From: a bacterium
GTDB lineage: Bacteria > Patescibacteriota > Minisyncoccia > UBA6257 > UBA9933
DNA: 64,000 bases
Reading direction: 5' to 3'
Assembly (NCBI GenBank): GCA_021796335.1
Contig: JAJYHZ010000001.1
Location: 80,360-144,359, forward strand
Below the pieces are notes generated by a model. It was not told where the DNA came from. It did no database searches and worked only from the letters and a program-made list of their open reading frames with translations. Numbering within the stretch: position 1 is the stretch's first letter; each line of letters opens with the position of its first letter. Shown here piece after piece: positions 13,514 to 50,980 of the stretch. The translations under genes were made by a program, and so were the position numbers.

Positions 13514-13706
13514 AAGGTTAAAGGTTGGGTGCATTTTAAAGGAAAGGGAGAATTGGAATCATATCACTTTGATCCTATTGAGAATTTTTAATGCGACTAA
13601 GCGAGGAGTAAAATGCAAAAAAATTTTATTTTTTCATTTTGGATGAGCAATGCCGGATAAAGAGTTTCTTTGACTCTTTAAGGAGCCGATTTCCCGACCC
13701 TTTTTT

Positions 13707-13742
13707 AATCGTATATCTTGACGATCGTCAAGATATACGATT
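13707..13742. repeat. 36-bp perfect palindrome AATCGTATATCTTGACGATCGTCAAGATATACGATT (copy 1)
   Basis: exact inverted repeat; identical copy with identical short flanks at 50642..50677. Confidence 0.9.
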
Positions 13743-13799
13743 ATTCCGAATAGTGTAATGTTTTGTTGAAAATAAAAAAATGATTTATAATTCATCACA

Positions 13800-24964: not shown

Positions 24965-25597
24965 ATGAAAAGCCAATCGGAATCACATAATTTGAAAATG
25001 GAAATCATAAGATTGCGGAAATTATTATCCGAACAAGAAAAAGAAATCGTCGCTTTGCGTCTTATCGCCGATTATGATTTTTTAACCGGTCTTTATAATC
25101 GTCAGGGATTTGTGAGAGAAGCTGAAAAATTCTTAAATTCTCTTAAAACTGCGCATAGGATCAGGCGCAAACACGGCGTTTTCAATAATATTTCTTTTAT
25201 TTTCATAGACTTGGATGATTTGAAAACTGTCAATGATTTGTACGGCCATAAATACGGCGACCAGATGATTAAAATGTCCGCCGAAGTTTTTAAAAGCAAC
25301 TTAAGAGACCTGGACGTAATCGGCCGTTGGGGCGGCGACGAATTTATAATCGCTTTGATTGACGCCGAAGAAGAAGACGCCGTTAAAATCGCCAGAAAAA
25401 TCCAGTCAAAATTATCTGAAATACGCATCAAATCAATCAAACAAAAAATTACCGCTAGTTTCGGAATTATTTCGGTTAAAAGCAAATATAGGAAAGATAT
25501 TTACAACCTCTATGAATTAATTGAAAAAGCCGACATGGCCATGTATGTTGCCAAAAAAGAAAATAAAAAGAATTGCGTTACTTCCTTTAATCAATAA
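24965..25597 (+). CDS. GGDEF domain diguanylate cyclase with N-terminal coiled coil
   Basis: RWGGDEFIIAL active-site motif; DLDDLKTVNDLYGH upstream block. Confidence 0.8.
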   Translation: MKSQSESHNLKMEIIRLRKLLSEQEKEIVALRLIADYDFLTGLYNRQGFVREAEKFLNSLKTAHRIRRKHGVFNNISFIFIDLDDLKTVNDLYGHKYGDQMIKMSAEVFKSNLRDLDVIGRWGGDEFIIALIDAEEEDAVKIARKIQSKLSEIRIKSIKQKITASFGIISVKSKYRKDIYNLYELIEKADMAMYVAKKENKKNCVTSFNQ

Positions 25598-25604
25598 ATA
25601 AAAT

Positions 25605-25784
25605 ATGGAACAAATATTTAAAGAAAAACCAGATGGAATAGAAAAAGAATTTGAAGAAATCGCTAAAGAAAAAGTCATGAATGATCCGCTTTACGATGAT
25701 TTGACGCAAGAGCAAAAAGAACAATTGATTCAAGGTGAATTGGCAAAAATAAAAGAACTCCGGAAGAAGACAAAGGATAATTAA
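25605..25784 (+). CDS. small charged helical protein (59 aa), not in ORF track (below cutoff)
   Basis: ATG 8 nt after the GGDEF stop; Lys/Glu-rich helical sequence MEQIFKEKPDGIEKEF...; the opposite-strand ORF 25587..25790 is poly-Phe low complexity and less plausible. Confidence 0.4.
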   Translation: MEQIFKEKPDGIEKEFEEIAKEKVMNDPLYDDLTQEQKEQLIQGELAKIKELRKKTKDN

Positions 25785-25874
25785 ACCCATTAAAGAATAA
25801 TAGCTCCCCGGGGGGCTTCACCCCTCCTTTTCATTGCAAATAAGCCCCTTCTAAATTAGAATAAAATTGCATTT

Positions 25875-25964
25875 GGAGGCGTCGCATAGTGGCCGAGTGC
25901 GCTCGCTTGGAAAGCGGGTAAGGGGTAAAACCCTTCGTGAGTTCGAATCTCACCGCCTCCGCCA
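25875..25964 (+). tRNA. tRNA-Ser (anticodon GGA), CCA encoded
   Basis: acceptor GGAGGCG/CGCCTCC, anticodon loop TTGGAAA, long variable arm, T-loop TTCGAAT, 3' GCCA. Confidence 0.9.
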
Positions 25965-27461
25965 AGTTTTACATTCAGCGAAATTGAAAGATGTTGCCTC
26001 GGCGCAAAGCGCCTCGGCATGGTATTTTTCCGCAATTTTGAAGGCATTTTTGAAATCCAAAACCAAAGTGCGGTCGGCAATGCGGAAGTTCGAACCAATC
26101 TTTTTGAGAAAATCCCGAATCCTTTCGGGATTTTCTTGTTGAGCGTATTTTTCGGCTTGGTTGGCATCTTTTAGAAAGGCAATGGCAAGTTCGAACCGAT
26201 TATTGCTCTTGCGCCCAAAAGCGGTAATTTTTTCTTCCAAATTTTTTTTGGCGAGAATGAGCTTGTGCTTTTTAGCGGTATATTCCGCTTGCGACAAGTT
26301 GCCGTCCAGTTGTAAATCAAGCAAGCGATCAAGTTTTGTTTCTATTTCTACAAGCTCATTTCTCGCTTTTTGGGCGAAAGAGCTTTCCGCTTGGGCAATT
26401 TTCATTTTTTCGTTTTCAAAATAGTTGATTGAAGCGTTTGCCCAAGCGGAAGACAAAGAAACTTTTTTGATTTCCTCTTTTATTTGAGAAGTGATGGCGT
26501 CCTCTCTCACATATCTCTGCGAACAAGGATTCTTCCGTTTGGTACACCGCAAGTAGTTATGACCTTTTTGCGTTTCGGTGGTAATGAAACAACCACATTC
26601 TCCACAACGGAAAAATCCTCTAAAAATGTATGGTTTGAGTTTTGGCGATTTCGGTTTGCTCTTGTTCGCCATTACTTCTTGAACGGAATCAAAAAGTTTC
26701 TTTGTGATAATCGGTTCATGCTTTCCGTCATACAATTCGCCGTTATATTCAATCATTCCGTAATAGATTTTATTCTTGAGCATATACTGATAATTTGAGA
26801 CGGAAAGCATTTTGCCTTTCTTGCCAACCAAGCCCAAGGAATTGATAATCTTTCGGATTTGAGCGAGGGGGTATTCGCCAGTCGCATACATTTCAAAAGC
26901 CCGCTTGATATACTTTGCTTTTTCCTTATCAACAATAATTTTTCTTTGGTTTTTATCGTTCACATAACCCAGTGGCGCCCAAGCGGGCCATATTCCATTT
27001 CGCAATTTCTGGCGAATACCCCTCTTTATATTTTCCGAAAGATTATCCACATAATATTTTGATTGCCCAAAAGCGATAGACAACATAAATTTTCCTTGCG
27101 GTGTCGGATCAAACCAAAAAGTAGGAAATTTTAGCGTGGTTATTTTTCCAGTATCCACCAAGTAAATTATTCTCCCGCCGTCTATGGAATTGCGAGCCAA
27201 TCTATCGGGGTGCCACGCTAAAATTCCCTCGGCTTCATTTTTCTCTATGCTTGCCACCATTTCGTTAAAAATCTCTCGCCCCGGCTCTTTGGCGGTTTTA
27301 CTTTCCACAAATTCACGGACGATATTTAGTCCCTCTTTTTTGGCATATTCCCGCAACTCAAACATTTGTGCCTCAATACTCAAAACCTGCCTTTCGGGTT
27401 CGTCCGTGGATTTGCGGGCATAGAGAAAAATCTTTTTGGTTTGTAAATTTATATTATCCAT
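25950..27461 (-). CDS. large serine recombinase (resolvase/invertase catalytic domain + recombinase domain + zinc ribbon)
   Basis: N-terminal YARKSTDE...QVLSIEAQ catalytic-Ser region, central recombinase domain, CGECGCF...LRCTKRK zinc ribbon; 503 aa; last 5 codons overlap tRNA-Ser. Confidence 0.85.
   Translation of the reverse strand: MDNINLQTKKIFLYARKSTDEPERQVLSIEAQMFELREYAKKEGLNIVREFVESKTAKEPGREIFNEMVASIEKNEAEGILAWHPDRLARNSIDGGRIIYLVDTGKITTLKFPTFWFDPTPQGKFMLSIAFGQSKYYVDNLSENIKRGIRQKLRNGIWPAWAPLGYVNDKNQRKIIVDKEKAKYIKRAFEMYATGEYPLAQIRKIINSLGLVGKKGKMLSVSNYQYMLKNKIYYGMIEYNGELYDGKHEPIITKKLFDSVQEVMANKSKPKSPKLKPYIFRGFFRCGECGCFITTETQKGHNYLRCTKRKNPCSQRYVREDAITSQIKEEIKKVSLSSAWANASINYFENEKMKIAQAESSFAQKARNELVEIETKLDRLLDLQLDGNLSQAEYTAKKHKLILAKKNLEEKITAFGRKSNNRFELAIAFLKDANQAEKYAQQENPERIRDFLKKIGSNFRIADRTLVLDFKNAFKIAEKYHAEALCAEATSFNFAECKTWRRR
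25962..26091 (+). repeat. R1 copy A (130 bp), abutting the tRNA-Ser 3' end; encodes the recombinase C-terminal about 43 aa
   Basis: 100% identical to the reverse complement of 27577..27706. Confidence 0.9.
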
Positions 27462-27576
27462 ATTGTTTTGAAATTAGTTTTTGGGCAATCAAAGAAAAAT
27501 ACGCTCAACCTTTCGCCAAGGGCGAAAGAAAAAAGATTGGTTCTGAAAACTTCGTTTTCTCTGCACTGTCGTGCAG

Positions 27577-27706
27577 GAACTTCCGCATTGCCGACCGCAC
27601 TTTGGTTTTGGATTTCAAAAATGCCTTCAAAATTGCGGAAAAATACCATGCCGAGGCGCTTTGCGCCGAGGCAACATCTTTCAATTTCGCTGAATGTAAA
27701 ACTTGG
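27577..27706 (-). repeat. R1 copy B (inverted, 130 bp), contiguous with inverted R2
   Basis: exact reverse complement of 25962..26091; read on + strand it re-encodes ...FRIADRTLVLDFKNAFKIAEKYHAEALCAEATSFNFAECKTWR, continuing into R2 as CFLDEVRTFFEQNSE*. Confidence 0.9.
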
Positions 27707-27865
27707 CGGTGTTTTTTGGACGAAGTTCGAACATTTTTTGAGCAAAACTCCGAATGATTGCGCGCTTCGCGCGCAAAACCGAAACGCTCGGGCGGGTAAA
27801 AAGGAAGGGGGTTGGGGGGAAGGAATTTTTGCCCGCCCTCGCTTTCCGCCGCCGCCGAATTTCGT
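27703..27865 (-). repeat. R2 copy (inverted, 163 bp, GC-rich) carrying a dyad-symmetric site GGGCGGGCAAAAA..(poly-C/mirror)..TTTTTACCCGCCC
   Basis: exact reverse complement of 29843..30005. Confidence 0.9.
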
Positions 27866-27975
27866 ATTTTGCTTTGCAAAATGCGCCGCCAAAATTGGAG
27901 TTGTGTTTGCCCCGCCCGCCCGTGCGCACACAACATTTTTTCTCCCTTTGTTTTGCTTGCTAAACATCATTTTAT

Positions 27976-28026
27976 TTGGTAGTATAAAAATACAGATAAT
28001 AACCTTGTATACTACAATACTACCAA
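27976..28026 (+). promoter_or_regulatory. candidate promoter/operator for the XRE gene: 10-bp inverted repeat TTGGTAGTAT-N31-ATACTACCAA overlapping TTGCTA-17-TAGTAT
   Basis: read from sequence just upstream of ATG 28039. Confidence 0.4.
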
Positions 28027-28038
28027 AACTTTATTTAT

Positions 28039-28245
28039 ATGACAAGTGGAAAAACAATAAGTGAAAATATAAAAAGATTACGCAATAAACTTGGTCTAAC
28101 GCAAGACGATTTAGCCAAGAAAGCGGATATTAAATACACTACGCTTATGAAGGTCGAAAGTGGAACAGTTAATAAGCCGAGCGTTCAAACTATGGCGAAT
28201 ATCGCCAAAGCGTTGGGCGTTTCGATTGAGGATTTAATAAAATAA
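28039..28245 (+). CDS. XRE-family (Cro/C1-type) helix-turn-helix transcriptional regulator
   Basis: IKRLRNKLGLTQDDLAKKADIKYTTLMKVESG HTH_3 signature; 68 aa. Confidence 0.85.
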   Translation: MTSGKTISENIKRLRNKLGLTQDDLAKKADIKYTTLMKVESGTVNKPSVQTMANIAKALGVSIEDLIK

Positions 28246-28249
28246 AACT

Positions 28250-28660
28250 ATGGAAAACGAAACAAACAATAAGGCACACGATTTTATTAAAGGAGAAGTT
28301 TTGAAAATGGAGCGCAATTCATTTTTCGTGCGCATGATTGCTGCCGCTTTAGCTTATGCGGGTATAAGCTATTGGCTTAATGCAATTCGTGCCGATGCAT
28401 CTTTGTGGTTTGTTTGGGTTTTGATCATTATTCAATTTGCCCTGTATTTTTCTATTTTTATTATGGGTTATAGGCGTGCAATAGTTTCAGGATTCAACAA
28501 AAATTTGAGTTTAATAGTTTTTATAGCTCTTGCCATTCTTGGAAGAGTAAATGATTGGGAATTGGCGGTTATTCCTCTAACAGTTATCATAATGCTAATT
28601 ATTTCGGCAAAAGCTAAAAATGTTTCTGATAACAGCAAACATTTATTACCACAAAAATAA
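28250..28660 (+). CDS. hypothetical 4-TM membrane protein (136 aa)
   Basis: starts 5 nt after the XRE stop; four hydrophobic helices. Confidence 0.5.
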   Translation: MENETNNKAHDFIKGEVLKMERNSFFVRMIAAALAYAGISYWLNAIRADASLWFVWVLIIIQFALYFSIFIMGYRRAIVSGFNKNLSLIVFIALAILGRVNDWELAVIPLTVIIMLIISAKAKNVSDNSKHLLPQK

Positions 28661-28671
28661 TTTTAAAAAAT

Positions 28672-29382
28672 ATGGGAATTTTTAATTGGTTGTCTAGCAA
28701 TAAAACACAATCCACTAATAAGGACAAAATTACCGCCAAGCAAGTTTTAGATTTTTCTAAAACTTACGAGGAATTAAAACCATATTTTGCTCTCTTTGTG
28801 CATTTCTTTAAATCTATATTGGATAGTGAAAATGAAATTGAGCAGGCGGTAAAAGAAATTCAGTCCAAAACACAGCAAAATCTAAAAGAAGACCAGTTAT
28901 TCAAGGAGTTATGGATTTTACGCTATGTTTGTTTGCATATATGGTTTTTCGATCTCAAACCACCAAAAAATAAAACAGAATTATCCGATGAACTTTTGGT
29001 TATCAATAGCGCGCTTAAAAGTGTTTTGAAAGAAAAGAATAAATTAGATTATTTACCTTGGCTTAAAAATGGTCTGCCTGAATTTGCTGACGGTGAATTA
29101 AACTTTAATAGTCTGAAAAATTTTAGAAAAAATTTTTCAGACAAACTGACAGATAAAATCCCGCATATTGCGTTTGATTGCACAGAGGGGCGATTGGGCG
29201 GAGAATTACACGATTTTGTTATTGAGTTGGTCATGACAACAATTCAAGAAGATCAAAAAGTTTTCAGTATGAGCGATAATAAGACACTAACAGAGGAAGA
29301 AACAAAAAATATCAAAAATGTAATTGCAGAAATGAGCGACGCTAGACATAAAGCGGCGGAAGATTTTATAAATTCTCTATGA
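28672..29382 (+). CDS. hypothetical protein (236 aa), no recognisable domain
   Basis: intact ORF co-oriented in the cargo cassette. Confidence 0.5.
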   Translation: MGIFNWLSSNKTQSTNKDKITAKQVLDFSKTYEELKPYFALFVHFFKSILDSENEIEQAVKEIQSKTQQNLKEDQLFKELWILRYVCLHIWFFDLKPPKNKTELSDELLVINSALKSVLKEKNKLDYLPWLKNGLPEFADGELNFNSLKNFRKNFSDKLTDKIPHIAFDCTEGRLGGELHDFVIELVMTTIQEDQKVFSMSDNKTLTEEETKNIKNVIAEMSDARHKAAEDFINSL

Positions 29383-29816
29383 ATGATTATTTTCAAATCA
29401 TTTTTTCTGCTCTAACTTTACTCGGTGTCGGCGGCATTGTCGGCGGGTATATAACGTTTTTGCTTGATAAAAAGAAAGAGTTGGAATTTAAGCAATTAGA
29501 GCAGAAAGAAAAAAGATATAAATCCTGCCTTTTATACATGGATGTTTATTTTGAGCCGAAAAATATCAAATATCTTTCAAGTCGCCAACCAGATATTGAT
29601 AACGCCCAAGATGTCATAGAATATTTAAAAGCTGAATATCACGAAATGTTGCTTTATGCTTCAAAGGATGTAATTTTATCAGTAAAGGCATTTATCAATG
29701 ATCCGACCAGAGAAAATTTTTTGAAGACTGTTTTGAACATGAGGCAGGATTTATGGGTTAAGAAAAATGATTTAGAATTAGATAGTATTCGGATTGATTT
29801 TAAAAGAAAGAATTAA
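29379..29816 (+). CDS. hypothetical protein with N-terminal TM anchor (145 aa)
   Basis: ATGA overlap with the upstream gene; perfect 9-bp hairpin terminator GTGCCAGTT-TTC-AACTGGCAC follows at 29826..29848. Confidence 0.5.
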   Translation: MNDYFQIIFSALTLLGVGGIVGGYITFLLDKKKELEFKQLEQKEKRYKSCLLYMDVYFEPKNIKYLSSRQPDIDNAQDVIEYLKAEYHEMLLYASKDVILSVKAFINDPTRENFLKTVLNMRQDLWVKKNDLELDSIRIDFKRKN

Positions 29817-29842
29817 AGGCGGCGTGCCAGTTTTCAACTGGC

Positions 29843-30005
29843 ACGAAATTCGGCGGCGGCGGAAAGCGAGGGCGGGCAAAAATTCCTTCCCCCCAACCCC
29901 CTTCCTTTTTACCCGCCCGAGCGTTTCGGTTTTGCGCGCGAAGCGCGCAATCATTCGGAGTTTTGCTCAAAAAATGTTCGAACTTCGTCCAAAAAACACC
30001 GCCAA
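29843..30005 (+). repeat. R2 copy (+ orientation, 163 bp) ending in core-like CACCGCCAA
   Basis: exact inverted match to 27703..27865. Confidence 0.9.
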
Positions 30006-30107
30006 TAGTTTTGGAAAATGAGCAAGTAAAAGTCCTTATTTTACGGCACATTTTAAAAACGAAATTTACAAAAACCACTGAACCCCGAAGGGATTCGAAC
30101 TGAGACT

Positions 30108-30506
30108 ATGAACGACGAAATTCAAAAGATAATAAAGAAGAGCACTTTTAGAGTTGAAGAAGGCAGATTTGTGTATGCTCAAGTTTTAAATGCTCCGAGC
30201 GTAGACAAACACTTCATGGTAAGTAAAGATGCCGATGAAGTCACCGTAGTTACAAAAGAAGAGAATCTGCCAGAATTAGATATCAAAGAACGCAATAAAG
30301 ATTTTTATCGCTTGATTGCGCTAAATGTATCAATACCGTTCTACTCTGTTGGATTCCTAGCAACCATCAGCCAAGCAATAGCTGAACAAGGCATGAATAT
30401 TCTCATCGTATCTACCTATTCGAAGGATTATATTATGGTTAAGGATGATAAGTTGGAAAAAGCAAAGTCGGTCTTGATGGGACTCGGTTTTAAAGAAATC
30501 GGTTAG
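30108..30506 (+). CDS. ACT domain-containing protein
   Basis: C-terminal beta-alpha-beta-beta-alpha-beta-like segment GFLATISQAIAEQGMNILIVSTYSKDYIMV typical of ACT regulatory domains. Confidence 0.45.
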   Translation: MNDEIQKIIKKSTFRVEEGRFVYAQVLNAPSVDKHFMVSKDADEVTVVTKEENLPELDIKERNKDFYRLIALNVSIPFYSVGFLATISQAIAEQGMNILIVSTYSKDYIMVKDDKLEKAKSVLMGLGFKEIG

Positions 30507-30627
30507 TTTGATATAGCGGATTACAACGGATTATAGCGGTAATTAGCAAATCTTTTGAGCAAATTTTGGAATATCAAAATAAGCAGGATTTTCTTTGTAG
30601 ATTCTTCGCAAGTTCCGTATAATTTTA

Positions 30628-31020
30628 TCAACACGATAGAATGAAAACGCCCGTACTGGTTCTAACTTCGGGACATCGCCTCCGCCAATTTTTACTTTTT
30701 GTGAAATCGTAAGGAATTGCCTCGGCGCAAAGCGCCTCGGCATGATATTTTTCCGCAATTTTGAAGGCATTTTTGAAATCCAAAACCAAAGTGCGGTTGG
30801 TAATGCGGAAGTTTGAAAAACACCGCAGAATGAGATTTTGAGCGTACACACGCTTAATTTCTTTTTTATCTATCACGTTTTCCACAAGTTCTAACCTCCT
30901 GTGAATATGATTTATTTCTTTTGATATTTTTCCCATCACTAAAATTAACTTTTCAAGCAAGCACTGAATATTTTGTTTTGAAACGTAAATGGCTGTATAA
31001 TAAAAACAAATGTATAGCAA
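30628..31020 (-). pseudogene. remnant ORF containing a recombinase C-terminal fragment (RTLVLDFKNAFKIAEKYHAEALCAEA)
   Basis: 130-aa ORF whose middle matches the last about 40 aa of the serine recombinase; no catalytic domain. Confidence 0.5.
30676..30820 (+). repeat. diverged third R1 copy preceded by the 12-nt tRNA-Ser 3' duplicate CGCCTCCGCCAA (attR-like or remnant)
   Basis: about 98-bp near-identical core (30716..30813) to R1, with 2 mismatches; tRNA-proximal 40 bp diverged. Confidence 0.8.
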
Positions 31021-31032
31021 AAATTAATTAAT

Positions 31033-32037
31033 ATGAGAAAAGCAATTATTATTATTATAATTGTGATAGTTGTTGCTCTAATATTTATTATAGTTAAACA
31101 GAATTCCAGAATTAATTCACAAATTTCCAACTCCGCATCCACTGCAGCGAACAATGTTTCTTCGTCGACAAATAACATTCCTTCATCTTCTGTGGGTAAA
31201 ACCGAAGAAAAAACTCTAAACTTCCAGGGATTGGAAAGATATTACCTTATCCATTTTCCTTCCGGATTTGATCCAAACAAAACTTATCCCTTGGTTTTAT
31301 CCCTTCATGGCGGCGGCGGTAATCCGGCGGAATTTGAAACAAAAATGGGCTTCGACGCTTTAGCTGATCAGAGCGGCTATATTGTAGTTTATCCGGCTGG
31401 AACTGGCAGAACAAAATTACTGACATGGAATCCGGAAACCCATATTCAGGTTTATGCGTCCGAACATAACATTGACGATGTCGGTTTTATTAAAACATTG
31501 GTTCAACAGTTGGAAAAAGGCCAAAAAATAAATACTAATAGGATCTACATCGTGGGATATTCCAATGGCGCCATGATGACTCAGAGGATAGCTTCCACGT
31601 ATCCGGATATTTTTGCCGCAGCCGTTTCCGTGGCCGGAACAATCGGAGGTAGAGCAAACGTCAATGCGCCACTAAAAACTATCCAAAAACCGGCAGACCC
31701 GTTCTCATTTATGGAAATTCACGGCATGCAGGATAAAACAGTCAATTATTACGGCGGGCAGACTTCGCCCAGCATATTTTTCAACCAGTCAAACCGGATT
31801 GATCTTTCGGTAGCCGACACAATCAAGTTTTGGACCGATGCCGACGGATGCGCATCTGCCGCTCCGATTGTGACAAAAACTTCGGATTATACAAAAGATT
31901 TTTACGATAAATGCAAAAACGGGACAAACGTCACTCTCTATTCATTGAAAAATGCTACACACGATTCCATTTGGTCCGATCCGGCCGATATCTCGCAGAT
32001 CATCTGGAATTTTCTGAATAATCATATTCGTGGTTAA
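31033..32037 (+). CDS. secreted/membrane-anchored alpha/beta hydrolase (esterase, PHB-depolymerase-like family)
   Basis: N-terminal TM, HGGGG oxyanion region, GYSNGA nucleophile elbow. Confidence 0.6.
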   Translation: MRKAIIIIIIVIVVALIFIIVKQNSRINSQISNSASTAANNVSSSTNNIPSSSVGKTEEKTLNFQGLERYYLIHFPSGFDPNKTYPLVLSLHGGGGNPAEFETKMGFDALADQSGYIVVYPAGTGRTKLLTWNPETHIQVYASEHNIDDVGFIKTLVQQLEKGQKINTNRIYIVGYSNGAMMTQRIASTYPDIFAAAVSVAGTIGGRANVNAPLKTIQKPADPFSFMEIHGMQDKTVNYYGGQTSPSIFFNQSNRIDLSVADTIKFWTDADGCASAAPIVTKTSDYTKDFYDKCKNGTNVTLYSLKNATHDSIWSDPADISQIIWNFLNNHIRG

Positions 32038-50582: not shown

Positions 50583-50641
50583 TGCGAAAGTTTTAATCTG
50601 ATGCAAAAATCCTCAAACGGGAATTTTGTATTTTTGTTTTT

Positions 50642-50677
50642 AATCGTATATCTTGACGATCGTCAAGATATACGATT
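50642..50677. repeat. 36-bp perfect palindrome (copy 2), 60 nt after the 5S
   Basis: identical to 13707..13742 including 4-5 nt of flank on each side. Confidence 0.9.
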
Positions 50678-50980
50678 ATTTAATTAATCTATAAACCCCA
50701 GGTGTAACCGGGGCGTGCCATATAATTGATTTCAATCTCCATAATAATACTTTATGCTGCGAACAAATTTATATAATTTAGATAAAATAATTCATTAATT
50801 ATCACAGAATAGCCGGCGATAAAGCCGGCAAAAACAATGCCATCGGACGGTCAGTCTGATGGCCGTTTACTTTAACAAGGAAAAAACCAAGAGAAATATA
50901 AATCCTGTTGTTAACGGGACTTTTTTAATTTAGAAATATTTTTTATACTTATATAAATTTGCAATTTTCAATCTGCAATC

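Follow-up and report, generated by a model that had tools for sequence, protein, structure and literature searches.

The DNA analysed here, a 64,000-nt stretch of a patescibacterial contig that we call the window and number along its forward strand throughout, contains a reverse-strand gene for a large serine recombinase (LSR) whose 3′ end lies inside a tRNA-Ser(GGA) gene. Around it are two pairs of perfect inverted repeats, R1 (133 nt) and R2 (163 nt), which are not a chance occurrence within 64 kb, and a set of attachment (att) sites at the repeat junctions. The region is very probably the left end of an integrative element of about 4 kb (~25962–30001) that is mobilized by the LSR and whose attP site extends across the end of the recombinase gene on its 3′ side. 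Its features are as follows.

25875–25964, + strand: tRNA-Ser(GGA) (ARAGORN; Rfam tRNA, 52 bits), the integration target, whose T-arm and 3′ acceptor strand form the B arm of attL.
25950–27461, − strand: the LSR gene in its integrated form (503 amino acids; Pfam and Foldseek), its native tail swapped for RR and a stop codon from the antisense strand of the tRNA gene.
25959–25965: the attL core, CCGCCAA, with the crossover within CCG at about tRNA positions 72–73.
25959–26091, − strand: R1a, 133 nt, comprising the P′ arm of the att site and recombinase codons ~459–503 (predicted β-hairpin and helix).
27462–27576, − strand: U, a conserved 115-nt region 5′ of the recombinase gene, with 84–96% identity across most of the 80 loci compared first.
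27577–27709, + strand: R1b, 133 nt, a 100% complementary inverted copy of R1a and the P′ arm of the internal attP.
27703–27709: the core of the internal inverted attP, TTGGCGG, at the junction R2a/R1b.
27703–27865, + strand: R2a, 163 nt, comprising the P arm, the tail codons and GC-rich hairpins (the 3′ untranslated region of the recombinase in its attP form).
27710–27757, + strand: the native tail codons, CFLDEVRTFFEQNSE and a stop, of which the first ~23 nt double as the P arm and contain GTTCGAAC.
27866–29842, + strand: the cargo segment, with a helix-turn-helix (HTH)/XRE regulator (28039–28245) and three genes without a Pfam match (28250–28660, 28672–29382 and 29379–29816).
29843–30005, − strand: R2b, 163 nt, a 100% inverted copy of R2a and the P arm of attR.
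29999–30005: the attR core, CCGCCAA, at the junction of R2b with X, the host DNA that begins at ~30006.

The window protein is an LSR, with a first DNA-binding domain (DBD1), a zinc-ribbon second one (DBD2) carrying a coiled coil, and an LSR-like fold. Pfam recognizes the domains Resolvase (PF00239, E = 1.5e-20, residues 12–157), Recombinase (PF07508) and Zn_ribbon_recom (PF13408), and the catalytic-region residues Y14, R16, K17, S18 and T19 are invariant among 36 homologues, as in a resolvase-type catalytic domain with a nucleophilic serine. In a structure modelled for the full-length homologue P0020 (mean predicted local distance difference test score (pLDDT) of 82), long helices at residues 338–385 and 391–441, the coiled-coil insertion in DBD2, separate the zinc-ribbon strands from a C-terminal β-hairpin; the order past the coiled coil is helix, β-hairpin, helix and a final helix, 498–513, which is the tail. 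Foldseek comparison with the PDB matched SPbeta Int (9y66/9dxh, E = 3e-17 to 1e-15), Bxb1 (9iu2, 6e-14), PhiC31 (9tep, 6e-12) and LI Int (4kis, 1e-11). All recombinase domains are kept in the 503-residue integrated open reading frame (ORF), which retains ~97% of the gene length and has only the last ~15 native codons displaced. The exact window sequence was not on record in an exact-protein look-up.

The preliminary description of this DNA had placed the last 43 or so recombinase codons in R1, and about 44 do lie in R1a. Its reading of the two junctions is likewise borne out by translation. At the tRNA, the integrated ORF ends in ...AECKTWRRR and is stopped by the codon opposite the TCA at 25950–25952, within tRNA-Ser(GGA), a gene that is itself intact (5′ GGAGGCG complementary to 3′ CGCCTCC). 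At the internal junction, the plus-strand ORF 27368–27757 re-encodes the same residues through R1b, continues into R2a with the native tail and ends ...AECKTWRCFLDEVRTFFEQNSE, so that a full-length recombinase ends ...KTWRCFLDEVRTFFEQNSE where the integrated one ends ...KTWRRR. Beyond what had been described, the R1b/R2a junction is a complete, conserved and inverted attP, intact and ~115 nt 5′ of the recombinase gene, and R2b/X is attR.

The core CCGCCAA is common to all four junctions of the locus, namely tRNA/R1a, R2a/R1b (inverted), R2b/X and Y/R1c (~30684–30690), and is the only sequence common to the junction types tRNA/R1, R2/R1 and R2/X; across loci its invariant part narrows to CGG. 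The fourth junction belongs to a site at 30583–31020 (the element-like part at 30628–31020, − strand), just past an ACT-domain gene (30108–30506), which holds an R2-like arm, Y (GTTCTAAC, 15 nt, then CCGCCAA), a direct copy of R1a that is 90% identical (R1c, 30674–30817) and a short recombinase-like ORF fragment. This site suggests a remnant of a second, degenerate element, either an older decayed copy or part of a tandem array at the same tRNA. A search of 25000–32000 against Rfam returned the tRNA only, with no RNA family matching R1 or R2, and R2 has an unexceptional fold (z = −1.0).

Elements of this kind are widespread. In a scan of genomes, one for each species, the encoding stretches numbered at least 538, in many classes of the Patescibacteria, or candidate phyla radiation (CPR), and a metagenome scan found 572 more, bringing the total above 1,100. 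Recombinases 90–97% identical occur across many CPR classes, and a clade 61–65% identical was found in Elusimicrobia. IMG/VR holds a single distant match (58% identity), which indicates that the element is not typically phage-borne. R1, R2, U and the tRNAs were mapped on 80 genome loci, and both junctions were classified in 149 of 165 loci from genomes, metagenomes and look-ups (individual loci are numbered with the prefix L below). Contigs of the same host from other samples reproduce the attL side (L090) and the attR side (L093) of the window at 99.8–100% identity.

The layout is strongly conserved. In the sense of the recombinase, the standard order is host DNA, R2, cargo (1.6–5 kb), inverted R2, inverted R1, U (115 nt), recombinase, R1 and antisense tRNA. 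The preliminary description had argued from the window that the att core sits inside the recombinase coding sequence and that recombination rewrites the tail; in at least 109 of the 149 classified loci (raw classification) the recombinase 3′ end adjoins the tRNA and runs into it at the same ..W-R codon, always at ..TGG CGG. The inverted R1 is 133–134 nt long with fixed boundaries in all clades, including those only 61–65% identical, its inner boundary always in the GTTC/GAAC of the KIGSN codons and its outer one always at the core. At the far R2 junction, flanking DNA is locus-specific at the 15 loci compared, often with a terminator-like hairpin, and has only (x)GCGG or CGG in common, which identifies that junction as attR with the crossover at about tRNA positions 72–73.

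In most loci the target is a tRNA-Ser gene, of any anticodon, and at every locus the tRNA keeps its own, host-specific acceptor strand. What is targeted appears to be a generic T-arm with a ...CCG(CCA) end and not specifically tRNA-Ser. Other tRNA genes occupied are tRNA-Asp (L110 and L113) and tRNA-Trp (L115), by elements whose recombinases are 95–96% identical to that of the window, and tRNA-Gln (L048, L051, L062, L064 and L095), by a clade whose recombinases are 70–74% identical to it.

The arms of the att sites resemble those of other LSRs. Outward from the core, the consensus tRNA arm reads TGGCGG-AGAGGGAGGGA-TTCGAAC and the consensus P arm TGGCGG-TGTTTTTTGGACGAAG-TTCGAAC, with TTCGAAC starting 11 nt from the core in the former and 16 nt in the latter, a shift of 5 bp outward in the P arm; the P′ arm, at the start of R1, holds a degenerate version of the motif, CGAAAT. 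Half-sites of LSRs follow a rule by which the outer motif, bound by DBD2, lies ~5 bp nearer the centre in attB-type than in attP-type half-sites (PMC11722253), and the arms of this family fit that rule because TTCGAAC is 5 bp farther out in the P arm. These are short att sites without long target duplication, the junctions having only CCG(CCAA) in common. A crossover at the TTCGAA palindrome was considered and rejected, as each locus has the host's own sequence in the 3′ acceptor strand from the T-loop to CCA.

Which of the two recombinase tails is the native one can be decided from homologues. A protein search returned thousands of relatives, and among the best 120 (60–94% identical to the query) the C-termini past the shared ..W-R fall into two classes. 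The variable class, R[GEDV]RDSNPR..., is the product of antisense tRNA T-arm DNA, and such tRNA-derived tails are 2 to about 70 residues long. The conserved class, CFLDEVRTFFEQNP with the variants CLLDEIRTFFEQNP and SFRDEVRTYFAQHP, is the tail that the attP copy always encodes and follows the pattern C-F-L-x-[ED]-V-R-T-F-F-[ED]-[QE]-N-P. Among 45 distinct P-arm tails, codons 9–14, which lie past the likely protein-binding half-site of ~23 nt, have an entropy of 1.17 bits at the third position against 0.43 and 0.40 bits at the other two, and the synonymous share of tail codon differences, 0.39 when read in the frame of the recombinase, drops to 0.07 and 0.035 when the two alternative frames are used. 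The attP-encoded tail is under protein-level purifying selection. In the P0020 model it is predicted as a helix (498–513) with pLDDT of 79–90. Because of the codon-level selection and the predicted terminal helix, we take the CFLDEVRTFFEQNP tail to be the native C-terminus and the tRNA-derived tails to be variable junk; integration cuts the recombinase gene at the start of its predicted last helix. Comparison of the junction tails with homologues, which the preliminary description had proposed as a way to find the ancestral end, thus favours the attP-encoded one, and the conserved extension past KTWR, whose absence it had said would make the overlap look incidental, exists and is under selection at the protein level.

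The two R1 copies of a locus resemble each other far more than they resemble those of other loci. Within a locus, their median identity is 99.2%, with 97% or more in 60 of 82 loci; between loci the median is ~66%, and only 3% of pairs reach 97%. In 16 of the 82 loci the copies are less than 93% identical, often from a mix of two R1 alleles. This shows that the inverted copies evolve in concert, with ongoing exchange between the two. R1 occurs as two main alleles that differ mostly in the ~35 nt beside the core (the P′ arm), ...TCTTTCAATTTCGCTGAATGTAAAACT and ...TCTTACGATTTCACAAAAAGTGAAAAT (for example, L001 against L007, or R1a against R1c in the window), and one allele lies upstream and the other downstream of the recombinase in L008, L023 and L108.

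Related loci exist in two orientation states. In state 1, seen at 69 loci and about 15 more with diverged P arms, the recombinase reads into the tRNA and the inverted attP lies upstream. In state 2, the tRNA is upstream and the recombinase ends in R1/R2 with its native tail. A locus was counted as state 2 only if its R1 copies had diverged or host DNA flanked it at either end, and three loci are free of assembly ambiguity: L108, on a 543-kb contig with R1 copies 86% identical; L095, at tRNA-Gln with host genes upstream; and L081, in which the upstream R1 has diverged. The two states share an unchanged block (inverted R1, U, recombinase, R1), with U adjoining the inverted R1 copy in each, and differ only by an exchange of the flanks. 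The orientation of the cargo varies too, its HTH end lying beside attR in L043 and beside the internal attP in the window. Other loci have attP on both sides of the recombinase (L094, L106 and L018) or an extra complete R1/R2 site past the cargo, in the same orientation as the recombinase (L159). In L008 (5667–7589), the recombinase segment lies between inverted tRNA-Ser(GGA) genes that are identical over the first 60 nt past the core, and next to them lie two unlike R1 copies, one 89% and the other 99% identical to the window R1; this arrangement cannot come from conservative recombination within a single copy.

At the level of sequence, comparison among the loci establishes the anatomy of the element, the position of its junctions, the conservation of its layout, the constraint on the tail and the presence of both orientations of each segment among relatives, and it shows that both segments have been inverted during the history of the family. 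The preliminary description had held integration or inversion responsible for the rewritten tail. For the family as a whole this stands, both recombinase orientations being present (L108, L095 and L081 against the majority), whereas the one apparent flip within the same host does not. That candidate, L088 (sample ERZ27233565, 10911–13904), has a flipped recombinase and seemed to be an in-situ inversion; we rejected it as a chimera joined through R1, because its 38% GC host sequence runs into tRNA-Ser(GCT) and ~60% GC DNA. The recombinase segment is near-identical (1,778 nt, 99.7%) in these two very different hosts of one sample, and L088 illustrates how the 134-nt repeat causes mis-joins in k141 assemblies. 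For the same risk of chimerism we dropped L082–L087, contigs with a conserved tail that start inside the upstream R1, as evidence on orientation.

These observations can be combined into a mechanism. R1 has two roles, as P′ arm and as the final ~44 shared codons; the beginning of R2 likewise combines the P arm with the final 15 native codons, and the hairpins follow. The empty site would have run from tRNA-Ser directly into TAGTTTTGG. Integration would cross over at the extreme 3′ end of the tRNA (CCG/CCA), leave the tRNA intact and rejoin the recombinase ORF to the antisense tRNA, with loss of the native terminal helix; in the window, RR and a stop would take its place. With the second complete, inverted attP ~115 nt upstream, a pair of inverted R1 copies encloses the recombinase segment and a pair of inverted R2 copies the cargo. 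An excised circle, which is inferred, would therefore have two inverted attP sites separating two invertible segments, recombinase and cargo. Integration through one attP would give state 1 and through the other state 2, or inversion could interconvert the two, and the spare inverted attP would let the gene regain its native end by either route. Mobility at the window locus is itself inferred from the comparison of loci rather than from a directly observed integration event.

The tail swap might change the activity of the recombinase, by analogy with Mx8 IntP/IntX, through attenuation or altered directionality after integration. In SPbeta Int, the recombination directionality factor (RDF) acts on the DBD2 region beside the coiled-coil hinge (PMC11722253). 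A terminal helix near DBD2 and this hinge could plausibly affect directionality, which is speculation on our part. We tentatively suggest, with rather low confidence, that the element is a self-contained directionality or rescue device built from a single LSR, which would swap its own last helix whenever it recombines: the circle or flipped state would yield the full-length form and integration the truncated one, and a two-segment flip-flop of 2-micron geometry, made possible by the conserved inverted spare attP, would restore the native end without excision, underlying the spread of the family across most CPR lineages and several tRNA types.

Several points weigh against the proposed mechanism as a whole. 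The length of R1 (133 nt) is near the common assembly k-mer of 141, and the orientation of L082–L087 is not trustworthy. Loci in state 1, which encode the truncated form, greatly outnumber the others, which also fits a tail that does not matter after integration. The diverged R1 copies at state-2 loci argue against frequent flipping there. No excised circle was found, and a search of metagenome contigs for the empty attB of this host (CACCGCCTCCGCCAATAGTTTTGGAAAATG) gave 0 matches. Finally, no LSR is known to recombine attL with attP, or attP with attP, efficiently, a point that bears on which enzyme makes the inversions.

The overlap could instead be incidental, an att site meeting the end of an ORF in a compact element, with a dispensable tail and a swap without regulatory meaning. 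The dominance of state 1 with arbitrary tRNA-derived tails (2 to ~70 residues) speaks for this, as do integrated copies that are otherwise intact. It is harder to reconcile with the protein-level selection on the tail, including codons 9–14 past the ~23-nt half-site, with the confident prediction of the tail as a terminal helix and with the spare tail-encoding arm being kept in every clade. We regard an incidental overlap as possible, if doubtful.

A different explanation, the inversion version in the preliminary description, gives the recombinase segment the role of a cassette that often flips in situ between its R1 repeats, by the LSR or by RecA, and so alternates between a truncated form convergent with the tRNA and a full-length form co-directional with the tRNA and having its own terminator. 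Both recombinase orientations among relatives (L108, L095 and L081 against the majority) and a flipped cargo segment (L043) fit such a cassette, and the concerted evolution of the repeats requires ongoing exchange between the copies. Yet no single locus was seen in both orientations within one population, L088 being chimeric; integration through the other attP could equally give state 2; and the repeats at state 2 are diverged (86%). Frequent flipping in place is thus rather unlikely in our judgement.

It is very improbable that ORF 27368–27757 is a separate gene for a small protein with the C-terminal module of the recombinase. The frame is open for 129 codons, of which the last 58 encode the conserved R1 and tail sequence; however, it has no Pfam match, starts with GTG and for its first ~70 codons reads through U and the strand opposite the recombinase 5′ end, and its conservation is fully explained by R1 and R2 acting as the att site and the recombinase 3′ end. 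That the R1b/R2a junction is an assembly artefact, a repeat duplication or fold-back or a mix of integrated and excised reads, is largely refuted and barely credible: full (100%) identity of neighbouring repeats, the closeness of R1 to k = 141 and a chimeric R1 join in another assembly of the host (L088) speak for it, but the layout recurs in more than 80 loci from independent SPAdes, MEGAHIT and other assemblies, on contigs of up to several hundred kb, with constant repeat position and boundaries, and 16 of 82 loci have R1 copies below 93% identity (several only 75–92%), which is beyond assembler duplication; the same-host contigs L090 and L093 speak against an artefact too.

U is presumably the recombinase promoter and leader; scans for promoters and terminators gave no enrichment over shuffled sequence. 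Just 5′ of the HTH gene, at 27975–28030, the palindromic stretch TTGGTAGTAT...ATACTACAATACTACCAA resembles an operator; the HTH regulator might bind it, in the intergenic DNA that the HTH gene and the recombinase have in common. The cargoes of L082 (2350–9860) and L094 (283–5558) open with the same kind of small HTH gene and continue with restriction-modification or defence-like genes (PLD-SNF2 helicase, MmeI/Eco57I-type methyltransferase, AAA_13, N6_N4 and D12 methyltransferases, AAA_15/21). Elsewhere in the window, and unrelated to the element, two identical 44-nt copies of TTTTTAATCGTATATCTTGACGATCGTCAAGATATACGATTATT, each with a central 38-nt perfect palindrome, lie 37 kb apart (13702–13745 and 50637–50680).

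If the tail swap changes activity, the directionality or stability of an LSR would be controlled by rewriting its own gene and not by a separate RDF, which would bear on self-regulation in minimal elements and on the design of LSR tools. Regardless of any switch, this is a very widespread and highly conserved family of integrative elements in the CPR/Patescibacteria, with essentially identical element DNA in 38% GC and ~60% GC hosts of one sample. Sitting at tRNA 3′ ends with restriction-modification or defence-like cargo, the family is a candidate vehicle of gene flow, and possibly a genetic tool for the CPR, in which genetics has hardly begun. Short-read assemblies also break at the 134-bp inverted repeat of these elements and acquire chimeric joins there, a concern for the quality of metagenome-assembled genomes.

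In the literature searched, we found no LSR with attP in its own gene, no LSR element at tRNA-Ser in the CPR and no inverted spare attP; a preprint on tycheposons mentions LSRs only in passing. The nearest parallels come from tyrosine recombinases. Phage Mx8 too has the 3′ end of a tRNA gene as its target. In the Mx8 IntP/IntX system (and in Mx9), attP lies within int and integration gives a new 3′ end and C-terminus, which has been read as integrase regulation, and the prophage-encoded form has altered properties (PMC6070905). The window element similarly has its attP core inside the recombinase ORF and acquires a new 3′ end by integration. Unlike the tyrosine enzyme of Mx8, in which a large C-terminal part is replaced, the window enzyme is a serine recombinase that has only its last ~15 residues replaced, and its element is ~4 kb with a spare attP, compared with a 50-kb phage that has no inverted spare. 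The suicidal integrases of SSV type, reportedly exclusive to archaea and carried by archaeal viruses and plasmids, also hold att within an integrase gene that is altered on integration (PMC8371274). They share with the window element a compact integrase–att module whose gene integration alters, but they are tyrosine recombinases whose gene is split into two large non-functional parts, whereas the window gene keeps ~97% of its length.

Phage LSRs (Bxb1, PhiC31, SPbeta and LI/A118) share with the window enzyme their domains and fold, short quasi-palindromic att sites, a crossover on the 2-nt scale and the 5-bp arm shift. To our knowledge, the attB sites of LSRs lie mostly inside protein-coding genes, and their attP sites do not lie inside the integrase ORF. 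Unlike them, the window family targets tRNA 3′ ends of several isoacceptors and types, carries a second, inverted attP and has yielded no RDF candidate. It also differs from the classical tRNA-targeting island, with its tyrosine integrase and direct repeat of the tRNA 3′ end, in having a serine recombinase and a far junction that shares only 3–7 nt.

The Mu G segment with Gin, Hin and the shufflons resemble the window element in placing a site inside a coding sequence, where inversion would attach another C-terminal end, and the Salmonella hin gene lies within its own invertible segment. Gin and Hin are small serine invertases with a C-terminal HTH and Rci is a tyrosine recombinase, whereas the window enzyme is a 503-residue LSR; the inverted repeats measure 133 and 163 nt against sites of ~26 bp; and the recombinase itself changes in the window element, where those systems change a tail fibre or pilin. 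The yeast 2-micron plasmid is a circle in which two long inverted repeats with recombination sites separate two unique segments that occur in either orientation, and the presumed free circle of the window element would have the same geometry as this FLP/FRT system. Unlike 2-micron, a replicating plasmid in which flipping by the tyrosine recombinase FLP drives copy-number amplification, the window element has a serine enzyme, no evident replication gene and a circle that is so far a prediction. An att site within an integrase gene is thus a known design among tyrosine recombinases; what appears to be new here is its use by a serine recombinase, together with an added, inverted second site.

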